In this document: piece by piece, positions 3,627-22,503 of the stretch
How the letters are laid out: each line of letters begins with the position of its first letter
Numbering within the stretch: position 1 is the stretch's first letter
Origin: a virus
DNA: 64,000 nucleotides
IMG/VR virus record: IMGVR_UViG_3300025141_000063
Coordinates: 1-64,000 of that record
Reading direction: 5' to 3' (one strand)
Notes under the pieces: generated by a model
Databases searched by the model: none
What the model was told of the DNA's origin: nothing
The model's input: only the letters and a program-made list of their open reading frames with translations
Position numbers and translations under genes: made by a program

Positions 3627-4020
3627 GGGGCCTCCCAAGAAGGATCTACACTCCCCCTCCCCACGGCTCAAGTGGATGGCCAGCATGCTGCACGAGCTGC
3701 TGCTCCTCTCCTCCGTGTGGGCGGGGGCGCGACTCGAGGATACCCCCGACCCGCTGAAGAAGCGGTTCGTACTCTCTACCCACCGTCGTCTGGGCTACGA
3801 AGAGTGGAAAGCGCTCAAGCGAATCTACACGATCTGGGCGAAGCAGAACGACTGCGTATTCAAGGACATTCGGCGGTACAAGAAAGGTGTAACCGCAGAT
3901 CTCTACATCAAATACGAGATGCACCCCGGCGGTTGTGACTTCAACCCTCACGAAGAGCTGCCTGCGCGTGAGCGCCACTGGCGCAAGATCAATCGCATTA
4001 GCCAAGAGGAGCGCTCATGA
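3625..4020 (+). CDS. hypothetical protein (start uncertain: 3625 or 3676)
   Basis: Open frame whose stop overlaps the MTase start (ATGA at 4017-4020). Confidence 0.55.
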   Translation: MGPPKKDLHSPSPRLKWMASMLHELLLLSSVWAGARLEDTPDPLKKRFVLSTHRRLGYEEWKALKRIYTIWAKQNDCVFKDIRRYKKGVTADLYIKYEMHPGGCDFNPHEELPARERHWRKINRISQEERS

Positions 4021-7119: not shown

Positions 7120-8009
7120 TTCCCCTCTTCCTGGGTCACGCCCGATCCAGTGTAGCTACCTCCGGTGGCGAGGTCACCGATCGCGGGCACTTTCGCCCCC
7201 TCGGTCTTCATGATGAACTTCTCGAACTCCTTCATGTGCTTGCCAAGGCTGTCGCCGGCGGAGCGCCGAGCGTCAGCGATGTTCCGCACCTCTCGGGACA
7301 GCTCGGTCTGCATCCGCACGGTCGCTTGGTTGGTGCCCCGCCCGTCGAGCTCCTGGAAGCGGAGGTAGAGGGACTGCTGCATCCGTCCCATCATCTGCTC
7401 GCTCTCCAGCTCGAGCTTCATCCCCAGCCGGTGCAGGGCCACGTCGGGGCCGCCCCGAAGCACAGCAAGCCGCCGATCCCCGCCCTCCCCCAGGTCCCGC
7501 AGGCAGAGAGCCCACTCTCCCAGGGACATCACCGATGGGTTGAAGTAGTAGTGCTGGTAGGCGGAGACGATCCCCTCGGACACAGCCGTGCCGTACTTGT
7601 CCTCGACGAGCCGGGCGATCTGAACCGCGGGCACGTGGCCCAGCAGCCCGGTCTCGACATCCTCTCGGGCGTGCCCTGCCCCCAGGAGGGAGGTGGCCTT
7701 CTTGGCCTCGTCCGAGTCCTGGAACATGGCGTCGACCTGAGTCTCCCGCCAGTACCGCCGGTGCCCCAAGCAGTCCCTCTTCCGGGGCAGGTAGGGGCTG
7801 GGGCGGAGCCGGTGGCCCAGCATGTCCTCCCGCTCCTCCTCGAAGCTGTCCTCGTCCAGCGTGAAGAGCCCGAGGCTCCCCAGCGTGCGATTCAGCTCCT
7901 CGGAGTCCGACATCCCCATCAGGAGCAGGTACCTGATGAAGAAGCGGGACGGGTGGTTCTCGATGAGGAGGCCTCCCTCGATCACCTGCACATGCGCGTG
8001 CGCCCTCAC
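7116..8009 (-). CDS. hypothetical protein
   Basis: 297-aa ORF with 4-nt overlaps at both ends. Confidence 0.7.
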   Translation of the reverse strand: MRAHAHVQVIEGGLLIENHPSRFFIRYLLLMGMSDSEELNRTLGSLGLFTLDEDSFEEEREDMLGHRLRPSPYLPRKRDCLGHRRYWRETQVDAMFQDSDEAKKATSLLGAGHAREDVETGLLGHVPAVQIARLVEDKYGTAVSEGIVSAYQHYYFNPSVMSLGEWALCLRDLGEGGDRRLAVLRGGPDVALHRLGMKLELESEQMMGRMQQSLYLRFQELDGRGTNQATVRMQTELSREVRNIADARRSAGDSLGKHMKEFEKFIMKTEGAKVPAIGDLATGGSYTGSGVTQEEGK

Positions 8010-10000
8010 TCAGTGCCTTCCTCGCTGTCGGTCAGTCCGGTCTGGCCCAGGACCTTCAGCTGCTGCACCGTCTCCTCCAGGGCGAAGAGCGCCTGCCGGA
8101 CCGCGTCCTCGGACATGGGCTTCAGGCCCACCCGGGTGGCGATGAGCAGGTCGGCGAGGTGGTGCACGGCGCTCTCCATCTCCGGGAGGTAGCCGATGTA
8201 CATGCGGACGTTCTCGGGCCGCAGGAAGTTGAGGCCGAGGATCTGGTCCACGGTGACCGAGTCGTCGACTTCGAGGGCGTGCTTCACGAGGCAAGTGCGG
8301 TGTCCATCGAGCGTGCTGGCGAGGCCCGAGACGGAGGCCGTCTTCTCCCGCTGCACCAGGTCCGCGGGCGTCAAGGACCTGACCCCCTCGATGCGGGTCA
8401 TGCCCCGGCGCTGCACGCTGGCCAGCTTCTCCTTGGCGTACTCGGGGGCCACACCCATCGCTCCGAGGATGAAGAGGGCGTCCGCCTCCTTCACCTGCTT
8501 GAAGTGCTGGCCCTGAACGGTGTCGAGCAGCGGGCTCCGCAGGGTGTAGGTGCCCCCGCCGCCCACGACGTCGACGTAGTCACAGCCGACGCGGGCCTGC
8601 TTCTCGATGCCCGCGGCGTCCTTCAGCTCCAACTGCTTGTTGGCGAGCTTCCAGAAACGGAAGAAGGTGGGGACCGCGTAGTGGTTCTCGGCGAGCTTGA
8701 CCGGGCCGTCCTCCAGGTCGGGGAGGAGCTCCAGGTAGGCCTCCTTGCCGAGGGCCGACTTGACCATGATCATCTGCTGGTCGCCGCGGGCGACCAGACC
8801 CTGTACCTCGAAGGGCACGGTGGCCACCTTGGTGCGGGGGTTCACGAGGTAGCCGAAGCCTTCTACCCTGCTGCTCCCTGTGGGAACGAGCGTGCCTGCC
8901 GATTTCGTCGTCGCGTGCACCTCGGGACTCAGCGAGTACCCCAGGTGGCTGTAGGCCAGCTTCACGCCGGGCATGTCGCGGCCGTCGAGGTTGCGGACCT
9001 CGGTGTAGACGCCCATCGGGACGCTCCGGTTGGGGGAGTCGTACATGCCCGCTTCCTTCACCAGGAAGGGCTCGGGGTACTTGGTGTCCTCGTACGTGGT
9101 GGCGTGCTTGACGATGGTGAAGGAGTCGTTGGGCTCGAGGTCCATGACCTCGTCCCCTGCGATGGCGCGGGCTCGGTCAGCCGGGATCACCTCCATCGCG
9201 GGCTCGAAGCTGGAGTGGCTGGCGGCCTTGAGCAGGAAGGTGCCGTCGTACTGGCGCTCGATCTGCACCACGTCCGGGTCGGTGAAGCGCGGCGATGCCG
9301 TCTTCTCCACGCCGGGGCCGTTGGCGATGGCCTGCAGGAAGGGGCCGACCGACTCGTGCCGCTGAACGGCCCAGGCCGTCGCCGGGTCTTCGAGGGCCGT
9401 GGCGATCTTGGCCATGTCGTCCCGATGGAGGGAGCCGGACAGCATCAGCGCTTCGAGGAGGAAGGGCGGCTTGCCGGAGGCGTACTTGCCCAGGTTCATG
9501 CCCTGGCCCGAGACGCGACCGGGCAGGTGGCCGGCGAAGCCAGAGTTGTAGCCGGGAGGGAAGAGATCAGAGGCGATGTTCTTGTCCGGCGGTGGCACGT
9601 CGGCCCCATCGAACGTCTCCGTCATGTGCATCTCTTCGCGGATGCGCTTCTCCGTCAGTGGGCAGGCCGTCTCGCCCCGCATGTAGATGTCGAAGGGGTA
9701 GAGCTGCCAGTCCTTGATGATCAGCAGCACGCGCAGGTGGTTGACCGGCTTGTTGCCCGCCAGCTCCTTGACGGAGCGCTCGGTGGGGTTCCGGACGGAG
9801 ACGAACCCGAACCCGTAGCCCTGCGCGGCGTCCAGGTTGGTCAGGTGCACGTCGATCTCGTAGTCGGCGAGGTACGGGCACTGCTGGGTGACGGCGCTCA
9901 TGATCACACGCGGCCACTCCGAGGTGTCGCCAGTCATCCGCGTGAACGGGACCGCGATCTTCTCGAAGGTGAGCTCGGGAGGGGTGACGAACAGTTCCAT
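8006..10000 (-). CDS. K-x-A-rich putative head/core (scaffold-like) protein, 664 aa
   Basis: AGGAG RBS upstream of ATG 10000; 20 of 32 lysines are followed by Ala at +2 (hand count); structural-operon context. Confidence 0.7.
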   Translation of the reverse strand: MELFVTPPELTFEKIAVPFTRMTGDTSEWPRVIMSAVTQQCPYLADYEIDVHLTNLDAAQGYGFGFVSVRNPTERSVKELAGNKPVNHLRVLLIIKDWQLYPFDIYMRGETACPLTEKRIREEMHMTETFDGADVPPPDKNIASDLFPPGYNSGFAGHLPGRVSGQGMNLGKYASGKPPFLLEALMLSGSLHRDDMAKIATALEDPATAWAVQRHESVGPFLQAIANGPGVEKTASPRFTDPDVVQIERQYDGTFLLKAASHSSFEPAMEVIPADRARAIAGDEVMDLEPNDSFTIVKHATTYEDTKYPEPFLVKEAGMYDSPNRSVPMGVYTEVRNLDGRDMPGVKLAYSHLGYSLSPEVHATTKSAGTLVPTGSSRVEGFGYLVNPRTKVATVPFEVQGLVARGDQQMIMVKSALGKEAYLELLPDLEDGPVKLAENHYAVPTFFRFWKLANKQLELKDAAGIEKQARVGCDYVDVVGGGGTYTLRSPLLDTVQGQHFKQVKEADALFILGAMGVAPEYAKEKLASVQRRGMTRIEGVRSLTPADLVQREKTASVSGLASTLDGHRTCLVKHALEVDDSVTVDQILGLNFLRPENVRMYIGYLPEMESAVHHLADLLIATRVGLKPMSEDAVRQALFALEETVQQLKVLGQTGLTDSEEGTE

Positions 10001-10008
10001 GGGATCTC

Positions 10009-11133
10009 CTATCCTACCTGCACCTTCGAGGACATGGCCAAGGCCATCGCCTTCGACGAAACCTTCGCGGCAGATACTACCGCAGCACATGAAGCCGGCG
10101 TGGGGGTAAGCGCCTGCAGGGCTGTGAGCAAGGGCTGCAGTGCGGCGTTCAACTCCGTGCCCTTCACGACAGGACTACCACCCCCGGCCAGTTTGAGCGA
10201 CGTCAGAGTGCCGGAGCTCTTTTCCAGTAGCGCCTCCAGCGCGCCCCCGTTGGCGCCGAGGTGGATGATGCCGGCGTTCACTTTGAAGCCCGGCGAGTCC
10301 GTCTTCACGTCCGTCGCAGCCGAGAGCTTGACCGCCTGGGTAGTGGACTTGATCTCGACGTCTTCCTTCGCCTGAAGCAAGATCGACTTCTCCGACTTCA
10401 GGGACCACGCGCCCTTCAGGACCCAGGACACGCTGCCGTCCTTTGCGACGTCGAGCTCCACCTGCACCGTCCTCCCGTCCTCCCCCTTGTCGTACACCTT
10501 GAGGCTCAGCGCCGAGGACGTCGCGGAATCCCCGTGCTGCCCCAAGATCAGCTCAGCGAGAGGGTGGGGGTCGTCGGCCTGCTCCTTGGCGAAGATCTTG
10601 CACCTGGTGGGCCGGCTGCCGGTGGTCGTAGTCTCGTCCCGATCCACCTCCCAGAGGAAGTCCCCTCCGAAGGCACGCAGGTGGTAGCTCTCGCACAGGT
10701 CCCGGATGATGTTGTTGATCGGGATGTACATCCGCTGGGCCAGGGGAGTCGCCTGGATCTGCACCACCCCGCCGCGCCGTACGAACACTGAGTTGCCGTC
10801 CCGCGTCCCCAGGTAGATGTCGCCGGGGTTCATGGGGCGACGGCTGGAGTCGTAGCTGCCCTCCTCGTTCCAGACCATGCCGAACCCGAGGATGAAGGCG
10901 CGGTCGCCGATCTCACTGGACTGGCACACCCAACAGGTCGCGCCCGGCTCCGGCATCACAAACATGCCCTCGCCCTCCGCGTAGTGCACGTAGGGCGCCA
11001 TCAACGGGATGCGGTCCCACCTGCGGGAGGACGACTGGGACGCCACGCTGACCGAGTAGCGGGCGACGTTGACGTCGTAGACCACGCCTGTCTCGATGAC
11101 TGGGGGGCCGAAGACCCCTGTCGCGTGCGACAT
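10009..11133 (-). CDS. baseplate spike/hub protein (gpV/gp5/VgrG-like)
   Basis: N-terminal OB-fold-like segment (GVVYDVNVARYSVSV...GEGMFVMPEPGATCWV) followed by beta-rich repeats. Confidence 0.6.
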   Translation of the reverse strand: MSHATGVFGPPVIETGVVYDVNVARYSVSVASQSSSRRWDRIPLMAPYVHYAEGEGMFVMPEPGATCWVCQSSEIGDRAFILGFGMVWNEEGSYDSSRRPMNPGDIYLGTRDGNSVFVRRGGVVQIQATPLAQRMYIPINNIIRDLCESYHLRAFGGDFLWEVDRDETTTTGSRPTRCKIFAKEQADDPHPLAELILGQHGDSATSSALSLKVYDKGEDGRTVQVELDVAKDGSVSWVLKGAWSLKSEKSILLQAKEDVEIKSTTQAVKLSAATDVKTDSPGFKVNAGIIHLGANGGALEALLEKSSGTLTSLKLAGGGSPVVKGTELNAALQPLLTALQALTPTPASCAAVVSAAKVSSKAMALAMSSKVQVG

Positions 11134-14100
11134 CAGGTGCCCTTCCGGGCCCAGCCCCTGCGCTTGCGGCGCAGGGCGGGCGGGGTGCGATTGGCCTTGC
11201 GTACGCTCTTCAAGATCTTGTCCGTCGTCGCGCTGGGCATCGACGGGAGGACCCCGCGCCCCGTCTTGGAGCCCTTGGGGGCGACCCCCTTCAACCCCTT
11301 CTCGGGGATGTAGAGGGTGCGGTAGTCCACCGTCACCTCCTCGCCAGCGTCCAGGTCACGGAGAGCCACCATGAAGCGGGCCTTGCCCTTCTTCTTGACC
11401 TCTGCGGTGGGTCGGGGGCTGTGGTTGGTCTTCTTGCCCTCCGATGTCTGCATCCCCCGCTCGTCGAAGGCGACGGCGACGGCCTTGCCCTTCTTGACGG
11501 GCCCGTCGGTGAAGAAGCCCTTGCCGTGGATCTCGGAGTCTCGGATGGCTGCCGCCTTCGAGTGCAGGACCGCCTCGGCCGCTCTGGGCGCCTCTGCTCG
11601 AGCCTTGGGGTTCGTGATGAACTGGCCCGCCAGCCGAGCCAGCGCGAGCGCCCCGAGCTCGGACGGAGGCTTCTTGGGCGCCATGCTGTGCAGGGCCGAG
11701 AAGTTCCTCGCGTGATCAGGGGAAGACACGAAGGCGTGGAAGGCGTCCTTGGCTTGGCGGCGGAGGACGGGGTTCTTCTTCACCTGCCCGGCGGCCGAGA
11801 CCAGCTTCCTGGGGCTGGGAGACCCGAGGAGCGGCAGCACCAGCTCCCTCAGCTCTCGAGCACGCTTCTCCCTGCCGGAGAGCAGCTTGCCCTGCAGGTG
11901 GTCGTCCCAGTCCTTGGCCGTCTTGCCGGACTCGTCGGTGAAGAAGCCCTTGCCGTGGATCTTGGAAGGAGCGACGGCCGCCTGCTTCTGCAACGGGATC
12001 CTGTAAGGCATGACCATCATCTCGTTGTGCAGCTGCTCCTGCAGCAAGAACTTCGAGGGGAATCGCTGCGGGCGCGCATCGCTCGAAAGGGCGGGCGCCT
12101 CCGGGTGCTTCTTTCTCCACGCCGCGTACTGCGCGTGGAGAATTTGGTGATGGTCGTCCCCCTCCTTAAAGTCGAACCGAGCGCCAGGGTGCTTGGCCCA
12201 CGCGGCGGTGCCTTGGTCCGCCGCCAGGATCTTCATGTTCTTCGCTCCCAACGACCTTCCGGCGCGCAAGCCGGCCTGCATCACCGCTCCCCCGATCCCC
12301 TTCTTCCTATGCTCCGGCTTCAAGTACAGGGACGCCCCGTACACGTCCCACGTCCCTTTTCGCCTCCGCTTCAAGCTGACAGTGGCGCCGTGAGGCACCG
12401 CCCAACTCTTCTGCGTCGCATCACTACCATCGGGCGCCCTGATCGGGATAGTGGCGTCGGGAGCCATCACCCCCAGGAAACGACGAGTCTTCACCGGGCC
12501 GAAGCTGTAGCCCTCGGGCAACTTCGTCCCGGCAAGCTGCCTCTCGACGTGCTGCTTCAACACCTTCGGCCGGTCTCGCCACCGCGTCTTCGCCAGCAAC
12601 TTCGACGCGGTCTTGGACTGCTCCTCGTCCACCTCCTTCTGTGCGCGACGCCGCATCACCAGGGCGGTCGAGATGCGCTTGCCGCGGACGGCCGCTGTCT
12701 TGGGGTTCTTCTGCCCGCGGCGGTAGGCCCCATACGCCAGCGCTGCCACAGCCAGGGGAACAATGGCGTGCCCCGCCATTGTTCCCGCCCGTCTTCCGAT
12801 CAGAGCGGCCTTGTCCGGGCCGTGCACCGCCTTGGAGACTGTCCGCGATGAGTCCTCAAAGTCCACTGGTGCCGTCGCGAAGCCCTCGGGGGTGAGCTTC
12901 CCCTTGTACGCCGCGTCGATCAGGTTGCTGCAGGTGTACTCCTCCCTCTCTCTGGCGCGAATCAGCTTCTTCCCCACCAAGGAGACCGCGGGGTCCGGGG
13001 TCAGCATCCCAAGCCCCGTGGCGGCCAGCCCTGTGTTGTCGTAGTCCTTGCCCACCTGGCGCTCGGCGAAGGTCACCGCACGGCGACGCAGCTTGTCGTT
13101 CTTCGGCGCGACGATCTTGTACTTCTTGGTGGCGAGCTGCTTCCGGATGTCGGTCTTCATGACCCCCTGCCCAATACGGGCCTCAACCATCTCGCCGTCG
13201 CCAACGTAGATGCCCGCGTGGGTGAAGCTCCCCTGCAGCGCCTTCGACGTCGCGACGAACCCGCGGTCGAAGAGCCGCCCTCTGCGCGTGGGCCGCTGGG
13301 ACTTCTGCGGAGACATGAGCACGATGTCCCCTGGCGCCAGGGCGTCGAAGTGCTCCTGTGCCATCGCCGTCTTCATCGCCGGGGCCTCGGGTGCTTCAGG
13401 GGGCTTCGGAGGCTTCGGGGGCTGTGGCGGCTTGGGCAGCTTGAAGATCTTGCCGCCGGACTCCACCTGCGCGGCTCCCTGCGGAGCCCCGAACCGGCGG
13501 ATCTGCTGCCGCAGTGCGGCCGGGGCGTGGACCATGCGCTGATCTTGCCCTGCATCGGAGGCGGCAGTCCTCCCTCGTCGAAGCGCGGAGTACGCCTTGT
13601 AGGCTGGGTTGCCTCGATACTGCTTCGTCGGGGCGTTCGAGATGCCGCCCTTCCGGCGGATGAAGCCGAAGGCCCGCTTCTCCACGGAGGCGGTGACGTC
13701 CATCTGGGAAGCCGCCGCAGCGATATTCCTCACCGCCCCGAGCCGACGGGTGGCGGGCCCGCGCTGTCTGGCCAGGGTAGCCGCGCTCCGCCGCGCGTGG
13801 GAGGTCGCCGCGGCCGTGTTGCCCCTAGCCCGCTGCGCGACTGCGCGGCGGGCATGTCCGTACCCCGTAGGACGGACCAAAGAGACCTTGCCCGTCTGCT
13901 GTCTGACCCTCCGTGCCGTAGTTCTGTGCCTGGCGAGGCTCCTTGCAAGATCTCGCCGCTGAGCAACAGGCCTCATGGCTCCTGCCACGCCAGCTACAAG
14001 TCCTGCGCCAGACGCAGATGGGGTGTTGGTAGCCACGTTCGTGGCAGCATGGGTCAGCCGAGGCATGCGCCGCGCCGCCGCCCCCCAGAGATCCACGGCC

Positions 14101-16220
14101 TTGTCGTTGAGGTAACCCGCCTGCTTCTGCATCGAGGCTTCCTGGGCCTTCCGCTCCCGGCGAGCTCGGAGGAGGCGGTGCACTCCGTACCCTGCCAGCG
14201 CCGTCCCACCGATGACTGCCCCGCCGATGGCCATCTGCCTGCCTGTCGGACGCCATCCGGTGCGAGGAGCTGCGGAAGTCGTTGCCGGGGCAGTCGTCGG
14301 AGCGGGACGAGATGCGACCACCTTCTCCGCGACCTGCTTCGCTACAGGGTTGGCCGGGCGAGAGGCCACCACCTTCGCAGCAGCCTGCTGAGCCACTGGA
14401 GCTGCGGCCGGGGCTACGACCTTCTTCGCAACCGCCTGGGCGGCGGGAGCAGCCGCGGGGCGGGACGCTACGACCTTCTCTGCCGCCCGCCTCGCTACTG
14501 CAGGAGCGGGCTTGGCCGCCGCTTCCTGAGCCTTTGCAGCGGCAGCGTCCCGCTGCTTCTTGAAGGTAACGGGGTCGATGCCGGCCCTTCGGGCAGGGCG
14601 CTCGATGTCCCGGTGATACCTCTGGTTCTCCAGAGTCTGCTTGTGCCAGAGCATCTCCTCTTTCGGCCTGCCCGTCCTGACCTTCTCCTGGAGGAACTCA
14701 TGCAACTCCCTGTGCCGGTGCTCCACCGGGCCCGCTCGATTCTTGAGCAGGTGTCGACTGCGCTGAAGTTGCGCCTTGTCCCACTTATCGCCGCCTTCGC
14801 GGACCTTCTTCTCGAGGTCCCGGCTGTCCAGGTACTCCAGCCGCTTGTACGTCTGCACGTCCTGGCGGGACGGTCCTCCCGGCCTCCACTCCGGCTCAGC
14901 AGGTCGCGTGAGCGTCGAGGGATCCCGATTTCGCAGGTACCGGGGCTTCCCGGCCGTCTTCTCCAGATCGGGGAAGGTACGATCCGTCACCTTCGAGCGT
15001 AGAGACTTCGCATACTCCAATAGCCTCCGACGGTTCTCAGGGGTGTCCTCCATCTTCGCCGTCGCCCATAGAGGGGCCAGGCGATTGGCCGAATCACGCT
15101 CGTTCGGGTACAGCTGCACGTCGAAAGCGTCCCCCGCCCTCCGCATGCGTACGTTCGGCTTGTCGAGCAGCACCTTGTTCGTTCTGGAGGAGACGTCCCC
15201 CAAGTGCCTCTCGGGCCCGTCTCTCTTCTCGAACCACTTCTCCAGCTCACTCCATGGCAAGTCTGGGGTTGGAGGCAGCCTTTCCTGCCCCTTGAAGTGG
15301 AAGTCTCGACTCTGGTTGTCTAGCGCCTGCGCGACTCCGCCGAAGTACTCCGGAACAGGCTTCATGGCGTGATAGCCCCTACCCGCCAGGGCCCCTACTC
15401 CTCCCCCAACTCCAGCGCCGATGAGGCCCCGCTTCAGCTTCTTGCCCTTCTCCGCGCTCGTGGCACCGACGGCGGCTCCCGTCGCTGCACCGAGGCCCGC
15501 GCCTACCAAGGTGCGCTTGTGCTTGGACGTCAGCGGCACCCACGCCTCCTTCACGGTCTCCCCCGGCTCCTGCAGCACCTTCGCCACCATCTCCTGCACG
15601 AGCGCCCACAGCCCCTCACGAGTAGCAACTGCCGGTTGACGTTCTCCCATGGGTGCGGGGGATTCCGGAAAATCGGTCCGCAGGTGCGAGGCGATTGCAC
15701 GGACCTGGTCCATGTCGAGCTCAGTGAAGCCTCGGCCCTTGTTCAGGTTCTGCAGCCACTCCGCCGTATGCCGAGGCGTGCTGTACCGCCGCTCTTTCCA
15801 CAGCTGTGGATGGAGGCTGTGGGGAACTCCGTGTCGAGTGAAGAGGGCGATGGTCTGGTCGAGGCCAAACTTGTCGCAGGCCATCTCGAGGTGGATGGTC
15901 GGGCGGAAGTCCCGGAGGTACTCCTCGTCGGTACGAGCGTCGATGACGTGCCCGAGGTCGTGGTACCCGGACCAGGCCCGGTCCTCCAGGGAGACGGGGA
16001 CACCCCGCCGGCGCATGGCGAGGTAGATGACCTTGTTGACCTCGTCCTGCGCGGCGTAGCTGGGCATGTCCTCCAGCACCGTCAGGTCGTAGTCGTACTT
16101 CGCCAGCTCCCCCTCCAGGTTCGAGAGCACGAGCTTCCATGCTCGGCCCTCCTCCGCTTCGGGAGGACGCGCTTCCGCGGCCCCCGTCTTGACGAAGGAG
16201 GTCAGGTCGTCAGTACGCAT
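11133..16220 (-). CDS. 1695-aa modular polyprotein (zincin-like, glycine-zipper/TM segments, permuted papain-like YiiX/C92 amidase, GNAT, SET)
   Basis: HDLGH...LEMACD; PGDIVL...THAGIYVGDG...VGKDYD...YTCSNL; LKPEHRKKGIGG; HGKG...NHS...GEEVTVDY; modules separated by K-x-A motifs; ATG 16220 overlaps the 3' end of the RNAP gene. Confidence 0.8.
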   Translation of the reverse strand: MRTDDLTSFVKTGAAEARPPEAEEGRAWKLVLSNLEGELAKYDYDLTVLEDMPSYAAQDEVNKVIYLAMRRRGVPVSLEDRAWSGYHDLGHVIDARTDEEYLRDFRPTIHLEMACDKFGLDQTIALFTRHGVPHSLHPQLWKERRYSTPRHTAEWLQNLNKGRGFTELDMDQVRAIASHLRTDFPESPAPMGERQPAVATREGLWALVQEMVAKVLQEPGETVKEAWVPLTSKHKRTLVGAGLGAATGAAVGATSAEKGKKLKRGLIGAGVGGGVGALAGRGYHAMKPVPEYFGGVAQALDNQSRDFHFKGQERLPPTPDLPWSELEKWFEKRDGPERHLGDVSSRTNKVLLDKPNVRMRRAGDAFDVQLYPNERDSANRLAPLWATAKMEDTPENRRRLLEYAKSLRSKVTDRTFPDLEKTAGKPRYLRNRDPSTLTRPAEPEWRPGGPSRQDVQTYKRLEYLDSRDLEKKVREGGDKWDKAQLQRSRHLLKNRAGPVEHRHRELHEFLQEKVRTGRPKEEMLWHKQTLENQRYHRDIERPARRAGIDPVTFKKQRDAAAAKAQEAAAKPAPAVARRAAEKVVASRPAAAPAAQAVAKKVVAPAAAPVAQQAAAKVVASRPANPVAKQVAEKVVASRPAPTTAPATTSAAPRTGWRPTGRQMAIGGAVIGGTALAGYGVHRLLRARRERKAQEASMQKQAGYLNDKAVDLWGAAARRMPRLTHAATNVATNTPSASGAGLVAGVAGAMRPVAQRRDLARSLARHRTTARRVRQQTGKVSLVRPTGYGHARRAVAQRARGNTAAATSHARRSAATLARQRGPATRRLGAVRNIAAAASQMDVTASVEKRAFGFIRRKGGISNAPTKQYRGNPAYKAYSALRRGRTAASDAGQDQRMVHAPAALRQQIRRFGAPQGAAQVESGGKIFKLPKPPQPPKPPKPPEAPEAPAMKTAMAQEHFDALAPGDIVLMSPQKSQRPTRRGRLFDRGFVATSKALQGSFTHAGIYVGDGEMVEARIGQGVMKTDIRKQLATKKYKIVAPKNDKLRRRAVTFAERQVGKDYDNTGLAATGLGMLTPDPAVSLVGKKLIRAREREEYTCSNLIDAAYKGKLTPEGFATAPVDFEDSSRTVSKAVHGPDKAALIGRRAGTMAGHAIVPLAVAALAYGAYRRGQKNPKTAAVRGKRISTALVMRRRAQKEVDEEQSKTASKLLAKTRWRDRPKVLKQHVERQLAGTKLPEGYSFGPVKTRRFLGVMAPDATIPIRAPDGSDATQKSWAVPHGATVSLKRRRKGTWDVYGASLYLKPEHRKKGIGGAVMQAGLRAGRSLGAKNMKILAADQGTAAWAKHPGARFDFKEGDDHHQILHAQYAAWRKKHPEAPALSSDARPQRFPSKFLLQEQLHNEMMVMPYRIPLQKQAAVAPSKIHGKGFFTDESGKTAKDWDDHLQGKLLSGREKRARELRELVLPLLGSPSPRKLVSAAGQVKKNPVLRRQAKDAFHAFVSSPDHARNFSALHSMAPKKPPSELGALALARLAGQFITNPKARAEAPRAAEAVLHSKAAAIRDSEIHGKGFFTDGPVKKGKAVAVAFDERGMQTSEGKKTNHSPRPTAEVKKKGKARFMVALRDLDAGEEVTVDYRTLYIPEKGLKGVAPKGSKTGRGVLPSMPSATTDKILKSVRKANRTPPALRRKRRGWARKGT
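11504..11962. repeat. exact 30-nt direct repeat (11504-11533 and 11933-11962)
   Basis: CGTCGGTGAAGAAGCCCTTGCCGTGGATCT occurs twice, encoding IHGKGFFTD on the minus strand. Confidence 0.9.
14300..14490 (-). repeat. Ala/Pro/Lys-rich coding repeat (KVVASRP x3 plus one KVVAP variant)
   Basis: AAEKVVASRPAAAPAAQAVAKKVVAPAAAPVAQQAAAKVVASRPANPVAKQVAEKVVASRP inside the polyprotein. Confidence 0.75.
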
Positions 16221-19200
16221 AGGGCTTCTTCTTCGTGCCCTTGCCGAACTCCGTGCCCCTGACAAGGCCGGGGATGGGACTGGTCCCGTGCAGGTCAGAC
16301 TTCCAGCCCTGCGCGCCGCCTTCCATGAAGGTCTTCTTCAGCTCGCGGTAGTTGAGGCGGGACATCCAGTCCTCGGAGCCCGCCATGGACACCTCCTGGA
16401 CACCCTTGAGGATCGGGGTGATCTCTGCCTTCTGCCCCCCGCCCTTGCCGATGTCCCTGTTCGCCCGCTGCAGCTTCGTGGTCGACACGACGTCGCCCCG
16501 AAGGAAGCCGGAGTCGCCGGGCTGCCGGACCGAGGAGAGGTTGGTGAGGGTGCGGACCACGGTCTCCATGTTCCTCTTCTTCACCCTGCCACCGTAGGCG
16601 CCGTGCATCTCGTCGGTGAGGTAGCCCTTGACGCTCTCGATGCCTGCCACTTCGAGCAGGTGGTGCGGGTTGACGGGCCCGGAGGATAGCGCCTCGCCCA
16701 GGCCGACGGGGATCATCATCTTCCCGCGCAGCCCCTCCATCACCTTGGCGGTGGGCTTGTTGCGGGCGGGGATGTAGTGGTCCTTCGGCTCCGGGTGGTA
16801 CTTGCCGAACCGGTCCTTACCCCTGATGTAGACACGCCAGCCGCCGGCAGGGTCTGCGGATGTCCGCATGATCTCCCCCTTGTACGAGGAGATGGTGGCC
16901 TGGCCAGGTACCTTCTTTGTCAGGTGCAGCAGCTGCCCCAGCCGGGTGAAGGAGTCCGTGCGGTTCGTCTCGCCCTTGCTCACGACGCCGCCGGTGTGGA
17001 AGGCGTTCATCGAGAGCTGGGTCGCGGGCTCCCCGATGGCCTGGGATGCCCAGATGCCGACGTTCGACCCCATGGAGGGCTTCTTCCCGGCCTCGGTCAC
17101 GCCGTAGCACATGGCGCAGATGCCCTCGGACTGCTCGCACTTCAACGGGGAGCGCACCAGGACCATCTCGACGCCGGAGTTCTTGATGCGCGTCAGCACC
17201 TCGGCGGTCAGCAGGGTCTTCGAGGGGACGTCCCCTCGCTTCAGCTTCACGGGGGCGGCGGCATACCTGTCGTGGATCTCCGGGTCACCAGTGGACATCA
17301 GCACGCCCTGCGTCGTCCCGCAGTCCTGTGACGTGATGATCTGGTTCATGGTGGCGCTGACCAGGTCCTTGGTCAGCTCGCCCGGTGCCTGGGTGCCCTT
17401 GACCTTGCCGAGGGTGCCCATGCGAGCGCCTGACAGGGACGCCCAGTACTCCGCCGCGCTGAGCCCCTCGGAGTAGCTCTTCTTGATGGGGATGGGGACC
17501 GCAGACCCGTTGGGGTCTGTGACGAGCACGGGGGCCAGGGTGAGCTGCTTGAACTGGTCCCAGTTGCCACGAGCTCCCGACTCCACCATCTCGTACATGC
17601 GGTTGCCGGAGCCCTTCATCTTCGCCTGACCCTCGACGTTGATGTCCTCGAGGGCAGTCATGTACGCCTCGACCACCGACTCGTCGCGGCTCTTCCCGCC
17701 CTTCTGCAGCGCCAGCGCCTTCTTGTCCGCCTTGGCGAAGTGCTTGTCGCGTATCTCGGGGCGGGACAGGACGTCCTGCAGACTGAAGGAGAAGCCGGTG
17801 TCGTAGGTGTACTTGTTGCCGAGCTGGTTCAGCTTGTTGACCGTGACCGAGAAGCCCTTCGGGTCTCGCTTCGCCATCTTGGTGAGCAGCTTCTCCACCT
17901 CCCGGCTCTTCAGCACCAGCGTCTTGTCCGTGAGGACCTTCTGCCGCTCCAAGGAACTCGAGGGGAAGCAGTTGGAGAGCATCAGCCGGCCCACCGTGGT
18001 CTGAACCATCCCGGCCTGCTTGACCAGTGAGGGCTCGGGCAGGTAGCTCGCCACGCCCTTGGGCAGCCGCCAGGAGCTGGCAGTCTTGGTGATCTGCGAA
18101 GAGCCGACGGTGATCACGTCCGAGATGCCCAGCTTGCCCTTCTTGTACGCCTTCATCGCCTCGTCGGCGGTGCCGAAGGAGCGCTTGCTGTCCTTGCCCC
18201 ACTTGCTCAGTTGGTACAGCCCGAGCTGTGCCTCCTGCCCGGGCAGGTTCATCAGGCCACCGGACGACGCGCTGAACAGGTTGTTCGAGGGCACCATCCC
18301 TCGCGCTTCCTCGATGGCTTCCTCTGTCAGGGGGACGTAGACCGAGGTGGTGTCGCCGTCGAAGTCTGCGTTGAACCCGGAGACCACGAGCGGATGGATC
18401 TGGATCGCTTTGCCCTTCACCAGCTTCGGGTTGAACGCCATGATGCTGTGCTTGTGCAGGACGGGGTCGCGCTTCATCATCACCGGCCGCTTCTTGACGA
18501 CCTCCTCCAGCGCACGGACTGCGACCGGGTCGTTCTTCTTCACCGCCAGCTGCGCCTGCAGAGGGGAGTAGCCGAAGACCTGCACCAGCTCTCGCACGAT
18601 GAAGGGCTTGTACATCTGCATCGCGGCCTTGCTGGGCAGCCCCACCTCGTCCAGGTCCATCGACTGCTCGGGGATGATCGTGGACCGCATGGACAGGTCC
18701 ATCTTGCGGCCGATCATCTTGCTCTGGAAGTAGCCGGACTTGGGCTGGGATCCCTTGACCGTCTCGAGCACACCGCGGTAGTGCCTGCCCTGGTACTTCT
18801 GCCCGTCCATGGTCAGCGCCTTGAGCCCGTCGTAGAGCTCCTTGTAGAGCGGCACCTTCTGGCTGGGCGGCAGACCTGTGTCGAAGTCCTTGAGCTTCTG
18901 GTTGGTGAGGGAGAGGCCGCGGTAGAGCTGGTTCACATCCGCCGACGTCGTGGCTCCGCTGTCCAGCACGGAGACCGGCCGGAACTTCGGAGGCATGATC
19001 GGAATGTGCTTCCGCATGTAGGCCTCGTCCGGAGACATCCCCGTCTCCTTGAGGGCCTGGAGGTAGCGGACGCGCCGGCGCAGCTTGCTGAGCTTGTACT
19101 TCCGGGCTCCCTTCAACTCCTGCAGCGTCTTCGTCAGCTCCTTGTCGATGTCGATCTTCTTCAGGGCGTCCTGGATCGCCTCGGTGCCTGTGCCTGTGCC

Positions 19201-22200
19201 GATTGTCTTCTCGTGCCCGATGACCTGCTCCATCTCGCCCCGCTTGAGGTCGAGCAGGGAGGAGATGGCGGTCTCGAACATCGGGTTGGGCAGGGCGACG
19301 TCCAGGGTCATGTGTCCCCAGGACTGCTGCGCTGCGTGCTCGGGGTGGAGCGAGCCGAAGATCTTCTCGTCGAAGATGCCGCCCTTCTCCGCCTTCATGT
19401 CCTTGCCTCGGAACATGCGGCCGGGGTCGGTGACGCCCCCGTTGCTCAGCTTCAACACGTCCTTGTCCACGAGGGGCTTGAGGTGGAGCTGGTTGCCCCG
19501 CTTCTCCGTGTCGAGGCCCATCGTCTTCAGGTAGCCCTCGAACTTCTCGTAGGTGAACGGGATCTTGGGAGGGGGCAGCGCCTGTCCGGAGTGGAGGGCG
19601 TTCCACATGTCGGGGTTGTAGTCCGACTTGAGGGTGAACATCTCCCGCAGGTTGTGGCGGGCTCCGTGAGCCAGCATGGCGTACACACCCAGGCCGCCCA
19701 GGGCCTGTGCGCTGGAGCCGCCGCCGCCCTTGGGGGACATGTCCAGGCTGTAGGGAGACCCGGTGCCACCGGCGCGGGCGGTCATCTTCTTGGCGACCTT
19801 GTGCTTGAGCTTGAGGATGTACTGGTTCCCCACCAGCACCTCGCCCATCGCCTTGCCCGTGGTCGGGTCGAAGAGGGTCTCGTTGTCGGACAGGCCGTGC
19901 TCCTTCAGCTCTCGCTGAATCTCCCGGCCGTAGTCCGCCTTCCCCTCCTGGGGGAAGTTGTCCACGAGGTAGGGCTTGCCCGTCTTCTCTGAGATCTTCC
20001 CGGCCAAGGTCTCCAGCACCTGGCCGACGTTGATGCGGGAGGGGACGCCGTGGGGGTTCAGGGCGACATGGATCTGCCGACCGTCCTTGGTGGCGGGCAT
20101 CTCCTTATCCTGCATGACGCGGGAGATGATTCCCTTGTTGCCGTGCCGGCCGACCAACTTGTCGCCGACCTGCGCCGGCTCCTCCGTCTTGATGTGGACC
20201 TCGATCTTCTTCTGGGTCTTGATCACCCGGACGACCCTGCCCTTGTAGCCCTTGTCCCAGAGCACCGCGCGGTTGGCGTAGTCCTGCACCTTCGAGCGCT
20301 TCAGCGCCTGGTAGGCCGCGGCCTCCGACCCGATCTCTCGGAGCTGCAGCTTGGCGATGAGCAGGTCGCCCTCCTCCACCAGCTCGCCGTCCTTGATGAC
20401 CCCAGAGGGGTCCAGCTTCGCGGTCTGTGCCGTGGTCACTGTCCCGGGGGAGACATGCGCCAAGTACTTGTCGCGGCTCATCACCGAGTTGCGGTCGAGC
20501 GACGCGTCCACCCGGTACATGTGGAGGCTGGTCAGCATCGTGGAGGCGGTCTGGGAGATGACCACCCCGTCCTCGTAGTTGTAGCCCTTGAAGGGGACGT
20601 AGCCGACCCGAAGGTTCTTGCCGATGGCGAAGGTGCCCTTGTCGGTGAAGTTGGTGTCCGCCAGGAGCTGTCCCCGCTTCACCCTGTCGCCCACCTTCAC
20701 GCGCATGTGCGCCTCGATGTAGGCCTCGTCCTGGTTGAGGGGGAAGTCCTTGTAGACCTGGACCGTGTGGTTGTCCCCGTCGGGATCCTGGATGGTCACA
20801 GCGTCCTTCACGATCTGCACCACCTTCCCGTCGACCGGGGCCTGGTGGGAGTTGAAGGACCCCATGATGTTCTCGAAGGTAGTCCCCGACTCCGTCGCTG
20901 TCTGGACCATCGGGGCTTCCCGATGCTTCAGGGAGACCGCCTGTTCCTGCTGCCGGGAGGCAGTCATGGTCCGGTTGCCCTGGTTGTTGTGCAGGAAGGG
21001 GATCAGGTTCGTGGGCAGGGAGTACATCGCCTTGGACGAGAGCATCACGTGCGTGACCTCGTTCCACGGGCGCATCATCACCTCGTTGCCCGTGCCGGCG
21101 ACCGCCACGTTCTTCGGGTCCTTCGGCAGCGGCATCTCCCCGGACCACTTCACCTGGTCAGCGAAAGCGATGATGTAGTTCTGGAAGTCCTGCGGCTTGA
21201 CCTTCTCAATCGACTTGGTCTTCTTGTTGTACAGCTGCACCAGCAGCCCCAGCCCCTTCTTCTCCACGCCGATGGGGAGCTGCAGGGTGATGCCTGTCTT
21301 CGCTCCTTCAGGGGTGGTGATGGGGTCCAGGTAGGTGAGGTGGCTGTCGTTGATCCGCAGGGCTTCCTTCGGCACCTTCTGCGGGTCGGAGATGGCGCCG
21401 GGCCCCATGATCGTGGTTCGCATCTGCCCGGACACGAACTCCAGGGGGTTCGTCTGGTTGGGGAGCTGCGCCAGCGACGTGGAGAAGAAGGAGTTCAGGG
21501 GCTTGCCGAAGACCGCGGGGTTCACGATCTCTCGGACCTTCATCTTCTGTCCGTCGAGCCCCTGCCTCAGGCGGCGCCCGATCTCCCCGCGGGAACGGTG
21601 CAGCCGGTCAGCGAGGTGGTCCTCGGTGGACAGGATGTCCTTGAAGGCCAGAGACTCTCGGTCGTCCGGCTTGATGTCCCCTCGTGCCAGGCCGAGCAGC
21701 TTCTTCGAGGAGGTCAGCATCGCCTCCCCGTTGACCACGTTGAAGGACTTGCCCAGCGTGAGCTTGGTGCTGTCCTCCCGGAGCTCCGCGGCAGCCATGG
21801 TCTCCCGGACCGCGGTGCGCGCCTCGTCGAGGTCCTTGGCCACGTGGCCCGTCGTCCTCTTCAGCACCTTGTTCAGGGACTGGAGCTGCTTCTTGTCGTC
21901 CCCGAACTTGCTCACCGAGGCGTCGTAGATGTCCTTGCCCCACGCCTTCTTGATCTTGTCGTCGGACTCCCCCATCGCACGGAGCACGGGGTACAGGCCG
22001 ATGTTCTCCATCGTCCCGAACTTCAGGGTGAAGACCCGCTCCTTGGGGTTGAAGAAGGACCAGAAGCGGTCGGCCTTGGCGCCGTCCCACTTGTTGATGT
22101 TCCACTGGGTGACCAGGCGTCCGGCCTCGTCCTCCCGGTGGTAGACGCCCGACTTCAGGCGGAACTGGTTGTCGACCTGCCGCTCCTTGCCGTCGACGAT

Positions 22201-22503
22201 GTACGAGTAGCGGCGGGTGATCTTGGGGACGCGGGCGACGGTGATCGTCGAGCGGTCCAGGACATCGCCAGTGGCCTTGTCGATCAGGGAGACTCTGGCC
22301 TTGACGGGGACTGCCCAGGTCCCGCCCTGCAGCTTCGCGTGCTGTTGGGATCTGATGTCGTCGAGCTCTAGGTTGTCGTCGACCCAGACCTTGTCCATCT
22401 CGAGCCGTCGGTTCTGCCCCTCGAATGGGAAGTGGTCCCCCACGGCTTTCGCCACGCGGGTCTTCATGATCTCGAAGGCACCTTCTGGGTCAAGCTGGGC
22501 CAT
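16210..22503 (-). CDS. rpoBC: single-chain DNA-directed RNA polymerase, fused beta and beta' subunits (2097 aa)
   Basis: beta motifs TPEG, GYNYEDG, GDKLVGRHGNKG, NPHGVPSRINVGQ, LKLKH; beta' motifs KRDPVLH, NADFDGD (18352-18372), TTVGR, SGARG, bridge helix, CEQSEGICAMC, AIGEPATQLSM. Confidence 0.95.
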   Translation of the reverse strand: MAQLDPEGAFEIMKTRVAKAVGDHFPFEGQNRRLEMDKVWVDDNLELDDIRSQQHAKLQGGTWAVPVKARVSLIDKATGDVLDRSTITVARVPKITRRYSYIVDGKERQVDNQFRLKSGVYHREDEAGRLVTQWNINKWDGAKADRFWSFFNPKERVFTLKFGTMENIGLYPVLRAMGESDDKIKKAWGKDIYDASVSKFGDDKKQLQSLNKVLKRTTGHVAKDLDEARTAVRETMAAAELREDSTKLTLGKSFNVVNGEAMLTSSKKLLGLARGDIKPDDRESLAFKDILSTEDHLADRLHRSRGEIGRRLRQGLDGQKMKVREIVNPAVFGKPLNSFFSTSLAQLPNQTNPLEFVSGQMRTTIMGPGAISDPQKVPKEALRINDSHLTYLDPITTPEGAKTGITLQLPIGVEKKGLGLLVQLYNKKTKSIEKVKPQDFQNYIIAFADQVKWSGEMPLPKDPKNVAVAGTGNEVMMRPWNEVTHVMLSSKAMYSLPTNLIPFLHNNQGNRTMTASRQQEQAVSLKHREAPMVQTATESGTTFENIMGSFNSHQAPVDGKVVQIVKDAVTIQDPDGDNHTVQVYKDFPLNQDEAYIEAHMRVKVGDRVKRGQLLADTNFTDKGTFAIGKNLRVGYVPFKGYNYEDGVVISQTASTMLTSLHMYRVDASLDRNSVMSRDKYLAHVSPGTVTTAQTAKLDPSGVIKDGELVEEGDLLIAKLQLREIGSEAAAYQALKRSKVQDYANRAVLWDKGYKGRVVRVIKTQKKIEVHIKTEEPAQVGDKLVGRHGNKGIISRVMQDKEMPATKDGRQIHVALNPHGVPSRINVGQVLETLAGKISEKTGKPYLVDNFPQEGKADYGREIQRELKEHGLSDNETLFDPTTGKAMGEVLVGNQYILKLKHKVAKKMTARAGGTGSPYSLDMSPKGGGGSSAQALGGLGVYAMLAHGARHNLREMFTLKSDYNPDMWNALHSGQALPPPKIPFTYEKFEGYLKTMGLDTEKRGNQLHLKPLVDKDVLKLSNGGVTDPGRMFRGKDMKAEKGGIFDEKIFGSLHPEHAAQQSWGHMTLDVALPNPMFETAISSLLDLKRGEMEQVIGHEKTIGTGTGTEAIQDALKKIDIDKELTKTLQELKGARKYKLSKLRRRVRYLQALKETGMSPDEAYMRKHIPIMPPKFRPVSVLDSGATTSADVNQLYRGLSLTNQKLKDFDTGLPPSQKVPLYKELYDGLKALTMDGQKYQGRHYRGVLETVKGSQPKSGYFQSKMIGRKMDLSMRSTIIPEQSMDLDEVGLPSKAAMQMYKPFIVRELVQVFGYSPLQAQLAVKKNDPVAVRALEEVVKKRPVMMKRDPVLHKHSIMAFNPKLVKGKAIQIHPLVVSGFNADFDGDTTSVYVPLTEEAIEEARGMVPSNNLFSASSGGLMNLPGQEAQLGLYQLSKWGKDSKRSFGTADEAMKAYKKGKLGISDVITVGSSQITKTASSWRLPKGVASYLPEPSLVKQAGMVQTTVGRLMLSNCFPSSSLERQKVLTDKTLVLKSREVEKLLTKMAKRDPKGFSVTVNKLNQLGNKYTYDTGFSFSLQDVLSRPEIRDKHFAKADKKALALQKGGKSRDESVVEAYMTALEDINVEGQAKMKGSGNRMYEMVESGARGNWDQFKQLTLAPVLVTDPNGSAVPIPIKKSYSEGLSAAEYWASLSGARMGTLGKVKGTQAPGELTKDLVSATMNQIITSQDCGTTQGVLMSTGDPEIHDRYAAAPVKLKRGDVPSKTLLTAEVLTRIKNSGVEMVLVRSPLKCEQSEGICAMCYGVTEAGKKPSMGSNVGIWASQAIGEPATQLSMNAFHTGGVVSKGETNRTDSFTRLGQLLHLTKKVPGQATISSYKGEIMRTSADPAGGWRVYIRGKDRFGKYHPEPKDHYIPARNKPTAKVMEGLRGKMMIPVGLGEALSSGPVNPHHLLEVAGIESVKGYLTDEMHGAYGGRVKKRNMETVVRTLTNLSSVRQPGDSGFLRGDVVSTTKLQRANRDIGKGGGQKAEITPILKGVQEVSMAGSEDWMSRLNYRELKKTFMEGGAQGWKSDLHGTSPIPGLVRGTEFGKGTKKKPYAY

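Follow-up and report, generated by a model that had tools for sequence, protein, structure and literature searches.

Polyvalent proteins are single polypeptides of phages or conjugative elements that combine 2 to 15 unrelated domains, and a 2017 study predicted their processing into separate effectors (PMC5512222). Proteolysis in the assembling head is described for T4, in which gp21 cuts the core proteins into small fragments and strips the internal proteins and Alt of their propeptides (PMC3012670, PMC5694885), and for SPN3US, in which gp245 cuts after A-x-E, repeatedly within propeptides, and cleaves itself at the C-terminus, in a head that also contains a virion RNA polymerase (RNAP) (PMC5694885, PMC10052503). 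The prohead proteases of T4 and of phiKZ/SPN3US recognise a P3-x-P1 tripeptide, and besides dicing core proteins they cut themselves, trim the capsid protein and set the internal or ejection proteins free. Structural features and catalytic residues found in the herpesvirus capsid-maturation protease are conserved in the T4 prohead protease (PMC5694885). These and the other literature statements below refer to the available sections of the cited articles. This article describes a gene of the virus record IMGVR_UViG_3300025141_000063 (IMG/VR), located behind a single-chain RNAP gene, that encodes a chain of unrelated modules joined at the tripeptide Lys-x-Ala (K-x-A) and is here called the polyprotein. 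The stretch analysed (the window) comprises the first 64,000 nucleotides of the 72,143-bp record, whose CheckV completeness is 38%; GC content of the window is about 65%.

The polyprotein falls within the domain range given for polyvalent proteins, and it is proposed that its modules are separated at K-x-A by the prohead protease of the phage. The modular architecture and its variation at the motif are presented first, followed by the occurrence of K-x-A in head genes and by the N-terminal domain.

Modular architecture of the polyprotein

On the minus strand, the frame 11133..16265 holds 1710 open codons, the first being a TTG at 16265; residues are numbered from this codon (protein P0001), which places the ATG of the polyprotein at M16. 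This ATG, at 16220, is almost certainly the true start, because the relatives P0003 and P0005 begin there and the database entry P0004 also has 1695 aa. The gene thus occupies 11133..16220 on the minus strand and encodes 1695 aa, with the stop codon at 11133-11135.

The initial annotation, made from the letters of the DNA, had described this open reading frame (ORF) as unrelated modules joined at K-x-A, and zincin-like, putative C92/NlpC-P60, GNAT and SET modules indeed occur in it joined at the motif. All ten motifs that it had listed were found in place, the last base of the Ala codon being at 15543 (VKEA), 14952 (EKTA), 14118 (QKQA), 13671 (EKRA), 13365 (MKTA), 12693 (PKTA), 12606 (SKTA), 11979 (QKQA), 11916 (GKTA) and 11550 (SKAA). 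When Pfam domain positions were compared with motif positions, each recognisable enzyme was located in its own K-x-A-bounded segment, as had been described, and the papain-like (C92) and SET regions start about ten residues past a motif. A mismatch between domain boundaries and motifs had been named beforehand as a possible refutation; the boundaries coincide with the motifs.

From N- to C-terminus, with all coordinates on the minus strand, module 1 (aa 16-241; 15543..16220) is the zincin-like domain, with HDLGH and a downstream Glu, and ends ...ETVKEA. Module 2 (aa 242-438; 14952..15542) contains a glycine-zipper/transmembrane (TM) segment and a further domain, ends LEKTA and is missing in P0003 and P0005; its Gly-zipper_YMGG match (249-296) scored 22.4 bits in Pfam, below the cut-off of 28.9. 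Module 3 (aa 439-716; 14118..14951) combines a basic region with A-[EK]-KVVASRP repeats and also contains a TM segment; it ends MQKQA, has fewer repeats in P0003 and is missing in P0005. The repeats are arranged in tandem in an Ala/Pro-rich stretch (P0001 residues about 590-655), with a copy number that differs between the window and P0003, and they contain K-V-V-A, one residue off K-x-A. Module 4 (aa 717-865; 13671..14117), which is Arg-rich and ends VEKRA, is missing in P0003. Module 5 (aa 866-967; 13365..13670) is a conserved FGFIR...KLPKPP segment that ends MKTA and is common to all three long variants, with a different module following it in each.

Module 6 (aa 968-1191; 12693..13364) is a putative permuted papain-like C92/NlpC-P60 amidase with a TM segment and ends PKTA. 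The Peptidase_C92 match of the window protein (1011-1077) scored 23.7 bits, below the cut-off of 27, and that of the homologous module of P0006 28.7 bits, above it; the amidase region is also supported by phrog_1128 over residues 976-1121 (PHROGs, 1.2e-11), and FTHAG and YTCSN can be read in the order His before Cys. Homologous amidase modules occur in P0006 and P0007, and in P0003 and P0005 the same slot holds an InPase module. Segment 7 (aa 1192-1220; 12606..12692) is a basic linker peptide of 29 residues, AVRGKRISTALVM...SKTA. Module 8 (aa 1221-1429; 11979..12605) is a GNAT acetyltransferase that ends LQKQA and is present in P0003 and P0005 too; the Acetyltransf_1 (PF00583) match in Pfam at 1295-1350 is weak (23.3 bits, cut-off 20.7) and reached 27.1 bits in P0005. 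Segments 9-10 (aa 1430-1572; 11550..11978) are an insertion relative to P0003, formed by a 21-residue stub that duplicates the SET N-terminus (IHGKGFFTD) and ends GKTA, and by a further module that ends SKAA; their first approximately 30 residues recur in P0005 at 420-448. Module 11 (aa 1573-1710; 11136..11549), conserved in P0003 and P0005, is a minimal SET-domain methyltransferase with a basic tail. Its SET (PF00856) match in Pfam at 1595-1648 is weak (23.3 bits, cut-off 22.4) and is accompanied by a match to phrog_34170; IHGKGFF, TNHS and EEVTVDY are readable in the sequence, the SET motifs being named GxG, NHS and E-x-x-x-DY. A phmmer search of the polyprotein against PDB sequences returned only 7cfl_A (E = 0.18).

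Exchange of modules at K-x-A among relatives

A search over 5.8 billion proteins provided only four relatives besides the window's own protein. Two of these, P0003 (1100 aa, directly behind a fused RNAP at locus L001, on a 188,377-bp contig) and P0005 (1647 aa), are close relatives, and they show that module content varies with breakpoints at K-x-A (in the following, an arrow marks the end of a motif); invariant content with no processing had been the other refutation named in the initial annotation. P0003 lacks module 2, with the junction HEKMA↓GKPRY where the window has VKEA↓...LEKTA↓GKPRY, and lacks module 4, with MQKQA↓FGFIR where the window has MQKQA↓...VEKRA↓FGFIR. In P0003 an InPase (PF18823) replaces the C92 amidase after xKTA↓; this family was matched at 2e-39 and 4e-39 in P0003 and P0005, respectively, and not in the window protein. 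P0003 is also free of the insertion in the SET N-terminus that in the window left the duplicated IHGKGFFTD stub. In P0005 the N-terminal domain (VVKTA↓) leads straight into module 5, which is followed by DUF5661, a further domain, InPase, a HEVGH zincin, GNAT, a second GNAT and SET, with K-x-A at each joint. The N-terminal domain is followed by three different modules in three proteins, always past K-x-A.

A second lineage is represented by P0006 and P0007, which share the amidase module with the first at 34-35% identity. They differ from each other by one indel and by one module swapped for an SNF2 helicase, and the edges are mostly K-x-A (MSKTAA, SKTAA, KKLA↓G, KKEA↓G), others being MSKTG and KKE↓. 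The helicase module (P0007 residues 279-753) is internal, bounded by K-x-A and 54% identical (E = 2e-175) to a stand-alone SNF2 helicase gene of the window (2097..3686, minus strand), whose leader reads ...EHFEKLA↓APLPA.

The co-location of breakpoints and motifs was quantified over five polyprotein pairs from the internal ends of BLAST high-scoring segment pairs (HSPs), 33 of 62 of which were within 5 residues of the Ala of a K-x-A, compared with 5.6 expected. None of 20,000 randomisations reached 33. This count overstates significance, because a single junction enters through each partner and through more than one pair, so that the HSP ends lack independence; this has to be held against the proposal, although the effect is still large. 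K-x-A ranked first among 400 X-x-Y pairs, the next being PxQ with 13. Taken together, the alignments and this test demonstrate at the sequence level a modular architecture that varies with breakpoints at the motif.

K-x-A in head and virion genes

Since the window's record stops at the terminase, relatives were used to study the head module. The nearest isolates are Salmonella phage Arash (a myovirus) and the Vibrio phages D69, D148 and D181, with identities of 31-33% for RNAP, 24-26% for the capsid protein and 35-39% for a protease-like protein; the gene order of Arash (portal, RNAP, helicase, protease, capsid) is similar. In purified Arash particles the RNAP beta subunit is the most abundant protein and the helicase is also present (PMC10585845); the words 'protease' and 'polyprotein' are absent from the available text of that paper. 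In Arash, enrichment of K-x-A was found in the genes between the helicase and capsid genes (locus L047, 126000-156000), the head proteins gp220, gp223 and gp225 containing 10, 8 and 7 copies (3.0, 3.0 and 1.8 expected, respectively), and the N-terminus of the capsid protein gp226 reads ...LVKEA↓GAAM.

The closer relative G002 (105.9 kb, RNAP 56% identical to that of the window) encodes between the terminase and capsid genes proteins of 296, 631, 292, 502 and 120 aa, with 11, 8, 7, 9 and 5 copies of K-x-A (3.5, 2.7, 3.3, 3.3 and 1.3 expected). One G002 protein contains 23 copies (6.3 expected). The 387-aa protein of G002 is a major head protein (phrog_2522, 3e-14) and has the N-terminus ...EGRTKLA↓AYGG. 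A K-x-A at about residues 22-33 of the capsid protein was present in 27 of 27 homologous loci. After 12 loci were dropped for capsid N-termini identical to those of another, the 15 distinct loci showed 429 K-x-A in the ORFs within 7.5 kb upstream of the capsid gene, about twice the 213 expected, with observed above expected in every locus; the downstream ORFs had 101 (88.8 expected). The same head-module pattern as in G002 is found in L022 (GC 0.68), which belongs to the window's own sub-clade.

The 631-aa protein of G002, encoded between the terminase and capsid genes, is a putative head-maturation protease. It matches phrog_18299, 'head maturation protease', at 4.6e-6, as do in all 7 of 13 homologues (best 2.4e-8), and a Gordonia phage homologue is annotated as capsid maturation protease. 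Candidate protease loci were found in G002, L022 and 11 further loci, and in neither the window's record nor G001, each of them about 40% complete. Two motifs, HH.NK and SMG, are invariant in the family; K-x-A directly follows the catalytic domain in 13 of 13 members, and K-x-A or K-x-S occurs near the N-terminus in the 9 sequences whose alignment covers that part clearly. The L022 protease carries an inserted TM module bounded by MAKTA↓ and EDKTA↓. By statistical and comparative evidence, then, one short recurring motif is common to the capsid N-terminus, the scaffold/core-type proteins, the protease and the polyprotein.

Two further genes of the window (minus strand) are rich in the motif, and K-x-A is the most enriched X-x-Y pair in both. 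The 664-aa protein of the polyprotein operon (8006..10000) has 20 of its 32 Lys in K-x-A (20 copies, 2.8 expected, p = 3e-11), and its true start is probably M31 of a 694-aa ORF; it is a putative core or ejection protein that the protease would dice. A 529-aa protein (26407..27996) contains 15 copies (4.5 expected) and, compared with its G001 homologue, an insert of about 105 aa bounded by EKTA↓ and EKSA↓. The remaining 43 ORFs of the record together have 56 K-x-A (65.1 expected). Homologues of the 664-aa protein contain 23 copies (about 6.4 expected) at 56% RNAP identity and 9 (3.1 expected) at 45%, and stay enriched while individual sites turn over, as do those of the 529-aa protein. The 694-aa ORF has no homologue in G001, whose contig ends first. 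For the 664-aa protein no usable ESM Atlas match was obtained, and an AlphaFold2 (AF2) model from a 4-sequence alignment, with a predicted local distance difference test (pLDDT) score of 44, allowed no fold call.

The N-terminal zincin-like domain

The HDLGH domain has no Pfam match. An AF2 model built from 8 sequences has a pLDDT of 80.3, with the last 6 residues, where the first junction motif falls in a disordered linker, below 50, and consists of helices at 23-40, 78-94 (with H87 and H91) and 105-129 (with E112) and strands at 45-52, 56-59 and 64-71. The order of helix, three strands, HDLGH helix and Glu helix is that of the zincin core, a layout described in section 8 of PMC5512222. The top structural matches are PprI/IrrE, CapP, ArdC, selecase and Wss1 (Z 5.0-7.2); the VIA-align Z values of 7.2 for PprI, 7.0 for 6d2s, 5.9 for CapP and 5.9 for ArdC are moderate. 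Foldseek hits in PDB are weak (best E 0.013; IrrE, selecase) and nearly all zincins, and those in BFVD (best E 0.0076) include 'PolyVal metallopeptidase' and IrrE-like proteins. The model and its matches support a zincin-like fold for the N-terminal domain. The AF2 model and the structural matches led to the rejection of HDLGH as an HD-phosphohydrolase motif, the zincin fold being preferred.

All 8 aligned sequences share H87, D88, H91, E112 and the terminal Lys. In the motif that ends the domain, 5 of them have Ala at the third position and 3 have Ser, so that the end is always K-x-A or K-x-S. The catalytic HExxH is replaced by HDLGH, HDLAH or HDLMH, with Asp in each of these 8 sequences as well as in P0011 and P0013; activity of the domain is uncertain because the general-base Glu of HExxH is replaced by this invariant Asp.

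An exhaustive profile-free search of 1.84 billion representatives found the domain in only 9 clusters. It is the one constant part of the gene downstream of RNAP across lineages, the length of this gene being 226 aa (domain only, L053), about 760, 1100, 1647 or 1695 aa; in the form of about 760 aa (G002 and G003) the domain is joined by a further part and by one that is glycosyltransferase-like. The domain is itself movable, since its place in P0011 and P0013 is near the C-terminus.

The loci L048 and L053 are located about 137 kb apart on one 303,591-bp metagenome contig. The L048 stretch gives a translated match 100% identical to the N-terminal domain of the window, and L053 is a second, divergent RNAP operon, encoding an RNAP of 2072 aa, a zincin-like protein that stands alone (226 aa) and a K-x-A-rich protein of 764 aa. 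These loci represent either two related phages joined in assembly or one genome with two such operons.

Operon context and neighbouring genes

The gene upstream of the polyprotein (16210..22503, minus strand) encodes a single-chain beta-beta' RNAP of 2097 aa, with Pfam matches to Rpb2_6 (7e-61) and Rpb1 domains. Coupling of the polyprotein to this gene, already proposed in the initial annotation, is evident from an 11-nt overlap between the RNAP stop codon (16210-16212) and the polyprotein ATG (16220); since the stop codon of the polyprotein also overlaps the ATG of the next gene, the three form a tightly coupled operon. Residues 1473-1497 of the RNAP (18013-18087, minus strand) form a loop of about 22 residues in the beta' part, with KTA↓ at one edge and KQA↓ at the other. 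The L050 RNAP has an equivalent loop (KTA↓...KEA↓), and the L053 RNAP has no loop and a single KFA↓ at this place. These sequences, a further indel with K-x-A at its edges, hint that the fused RNAP might itself be nicked at the loop.

The next gene (10009-11133, minus strand) encodes a 374-aa protein which, like its 381-aa homologue in L008, has weak matches to baseplate/hub PHROGs (E = 7.6e-4 for L008); this member of the operon may be a tail-tip or needle protein. Upstream of RNAP, a 669-aa protein (23541-25550, minus strand) is encoded where Arash has its annotated portal gene, gp204. The homologue found in L006 and L007 (L007:3852-8768, plus strand) has 1638 aa and two large intein-like inserts, which end ...HNS and contain endonuclease-like sequence. 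The terminase (346-2100, minus strand) ends ...TKEAA and a 289-aa protein (25551-26420, minus strand) ends ...SKKAA, both stop codons coming right after K-x-A-A, as if gene ends were module junctions. Apart from the polyprotein and RNAP, the window has genes for a large terminase, an SNF2 helicase, a C5 methylase and RNase HII; for the neighbouring proteins of the window with no assigned family, many of them large, Pfam and PHROGs searches returned almost nothing.

Proposed processing and alternative explanations

The reading preferred here, held with somewhat better than even confidence, is that the prohead protease dices an effector polyprotein of polyvalent type at its K-x-A sites. The gene, in a virion operon directly behind RNAP, encodes a conserved zincin-like domain at its head and then a series of exchangeable cassettes, each ending in Lys-x-Ala, usually with a small residue next. 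K-x-A (P3-x-P1) would be the recognition site of the head-maturation serine protease of the clade; the polyprotein would be built into the prohead and then cut at the junctions into separate modules, which would exit with the DNA and the RNAP and act in the host. The RNAP is probably packaged in the virion. As each cassette would have its own cut site, cassettes could be added, deleted or swapped by recombination without harm. The initial annotation had supposed defined cleavage sites, and for this part strong indirect support comes from the presence of the motif in head genes, at the capsid N-terminus and at the flank of the candidate protease.

Several observations weigh against this reading. 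Bare K-x-A occurs 14 times in the polyprotein, compared with 19.2 expected from global and 18.6 from local shuffles; in this ORF the motif is not enriched, which corrects the first description, and it is the position of the sites that carries the signal. Ten of the 14 are junction sites and 4 interior, a sorting that is partly the analyst's judgement; 4 interior sites, with about 18.6 expected from local composition, suggest, in favour of the reading, that K-x-A is avoided inside modules. In non-polyprotein families the HSP-end test was not significant (9 of 27 ends, 6.6 expected, reached by 3898 of 20,000 randomisations). Protease and capsid genes are both missing from the window's own record (72 kb, about 38% complete) and were seen only in relatives such as G002 and L022. 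Pfam S77 was not matched in G000 and G001, nor S78 in G000 to G005, and PDB sequence searches with the candidate protease and the profiles A5 and A6 gave nothing meaningful; the protease assignment, drawn from weak profile matches and gene context, is a weak one. In the available sections of PMC5694885 the large-myovirus prohead proteases cited all cut after Glu, not Ala, and the recurring motif here has Ala at its end and Lys at P3 rather than the form L/I-x-E or A/S/G-x-E. Moreover, the RNAP contains 10 K-x-A (13.3 expected) and the capsid protein two more late in the chain; the tripeptide alone therefore cannot suffice, and accessibility or context has to play a part. All of the following are inferred: proteolysis and which protease performs it, packaging, ejection and the roles of the modules in the host.

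This last point favours the alternative that K-x-A is the signature of a linker or recombination joint, or a site of another kind (Lys methylation or acetylation, docking), in a chain that stays intact like the N4 virion RNAP. Polyvalent proteins such as N4 vRNAP, ArdC and TraC1 are transferred uncut (PMC5512222), the polyprotein contains SET and GNAT domains, both of which act on lysines, and most Lys residues of the 664-aa protein are in the motif. Such a role is nevertheless unlikely, since it leaves unexplained why scaffold-like head proteins are enriched 2- to 7-fold, why a site near the capsid N-terminus is conserved and why the one after the protease domain is invariant. The forms of about 760 aa have no SET or GNAT in their sequence (the rest of the records was not searched for SET), and for one of them a glycosyltransferase family is the only one on record, yet the neighbouring 759- and 763-aa proteins contain 23 K-x-A (about 6.4 expected). 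Codons differ among the 14 sites of the polyprotein, which places the signal at the protein level and rules out a DNA-level repeat at the junctions.

A second alternative is that the modules are released by the zincin-like domain of the polyprotein, in cis or in trans and either ahead of packaging or following ejection, with K-x-A as its site. It is consistent with the fold and its invariant H, D, H and E, with the constancy of the domain in the gene behind RNAP and its K-x-A or K-x-S end, and with the processing role that Iyer et al. predicted for metallopeptidase domains (PMC5512222, section 8). It is nonetheless distinctly improbable. The catalytic Glu of HExxH is Asp in all 8 sequences, and P0006 and P0007 have K-x-A junctions with no zincin-like domain in the same chain. 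The motif flanks the serine-protease candidate in every member and marks the capsid N-terminus, as would be expected for a prohead protease. The head proteins of Arash are enriched in K-x-A, yet tblastn of the whole polyprotein, zincin-like domain included, against 50,697 phage records at E <= 1e-5 detected nothing, Arash included, which favours a prohead protease over the zincin domain as the cutting enzyme. Finally, it is very hard to credit that the coincidence of motifs and junctions is due to chance, or the long ORF to an assembly or frameshift artefact joining genes: K and A are common (133 and 245 residues) and the bare count is at expectation, but no randomisation reached the observed co-location, K-x-A ranked first of all pairs, and independent contigs (P0003, P0005 and the identical P0004 and L048) have the ORF in one piece.

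If dicing by the prohead protease is correct, K-x-A↓small would be a new specificity beside the cut-after-Glu enzymes. It would explain how injected effectors are shuffled as cassettes with no damage to their neighbours, would provide a simple rule to predict mature virion cargo across a clade of 'dark-matter' phages and would suggest a design principle for loading foreign proteins into capsids. The published virion proteome of Arash could serve to test the cleavage model (PMC10585845).

A broader version, tentative and rated somewhat short of an even chance, is that of a clade-wide 'cut-here' grammar extending out to Arash, by which any K-x-A-bounded segment in a head-targeted chain would be packaged, excised and injected by way of a P1-Ala, assemblin-like prohead protease new for tailed phages. 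One enzyme would then edit effector cassettes, membrane modules, scaffold pieces and even the virion RNAP loop, and genes could shift freely between a stand-alone form with a K-x-A leader and a cassette form, as the SNF2 helicase. This would amount to a natural, evolvable platform for the delivery of multiple protein cargoes and to the first RNA-virus-style polyprotein strategy in a tailed dsDNA phage.

Comparison with known systems

The isolates Arash, D69, D148 and D181 resemble this clade in RNAP, capsid and protease-like protein, and differ in that no homologue of the polyprotein was detected in them. Cleavage sites of herpesvirus assemblin have the form (V/L)-x-A↓S. At the motif level these sites share with K-x-A the Ala at P1 and a small P1' residue, whereas P3 is Lys here and aliphatic there.

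The internal proteins and Alt of T4 are likewise diverse, fast-evolving injected proteins with only a short processing or targeting element in common (PMC3012670, PMC5694885). They are encoded by separate small genes with one N-terminal leader each, whereas here the proteins are chained in one ORF with an internal site per joint; furthermore, the T4 enzyme cuts after Glu, and T4 has a capsid-targeting sequence.

The phiKZ and SPN3US systems (gp175 and gp245) are similar in having a three-residue P3-x-P1 motif and a multisubunit-type RNAP, which in phiKZ and SPN3US is packaged in the head (PMC5694885, PMC10052503). The C-terminal self-cleavage of SPN3US gp245 is resembled here by the K-x-A right after the protease domain. 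The differences are the motif (K-x-A, with Ala at P1 and Lys at P3), one fused RNAP chain instead of five subunits, substrates that would include a multi-enzyme polyprotein and the absence of Pfam S77/S78 matches in the genomes searched.

The likening of the locus to phage polyvalent proteins in the initial annotation proved apt, given the InPase PF18823 in the relatives and a zincin-like fold as in section 8 of PMC5512222. Both have many unrelated enzymatic domains in one phage polypeptide near virion genes, with a zincin-like metallopeptidase as hub, and the relatives found here contain modules for InPase PF18823, GNAT and an SNF2 helicase. The term 'SET domain' does not occur in the main text of PMC5512222, and no cleavage motif is seen in the available sections of that paper; in this locus a tripeptide stands at every module boundary and also pervades the head-assembly genes, the metallopeptidase motif is HDxxH and not HExxH, and a prohead protease is indicated rather than the metallopeptidase. 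The locus thus offers a concrete and testable processing signal, one linked with the machinery of capsid maturation and not with the metallopeptidase domain. A literature text search found nothing on K-x-A as a named motif or cleavage site. What is new in comparison with all these systems is the motif, K-x-A rather than x-x-E, the presence of many enzymes in one ORF with a site at every joint, and the exchange of cassettes at those sites.

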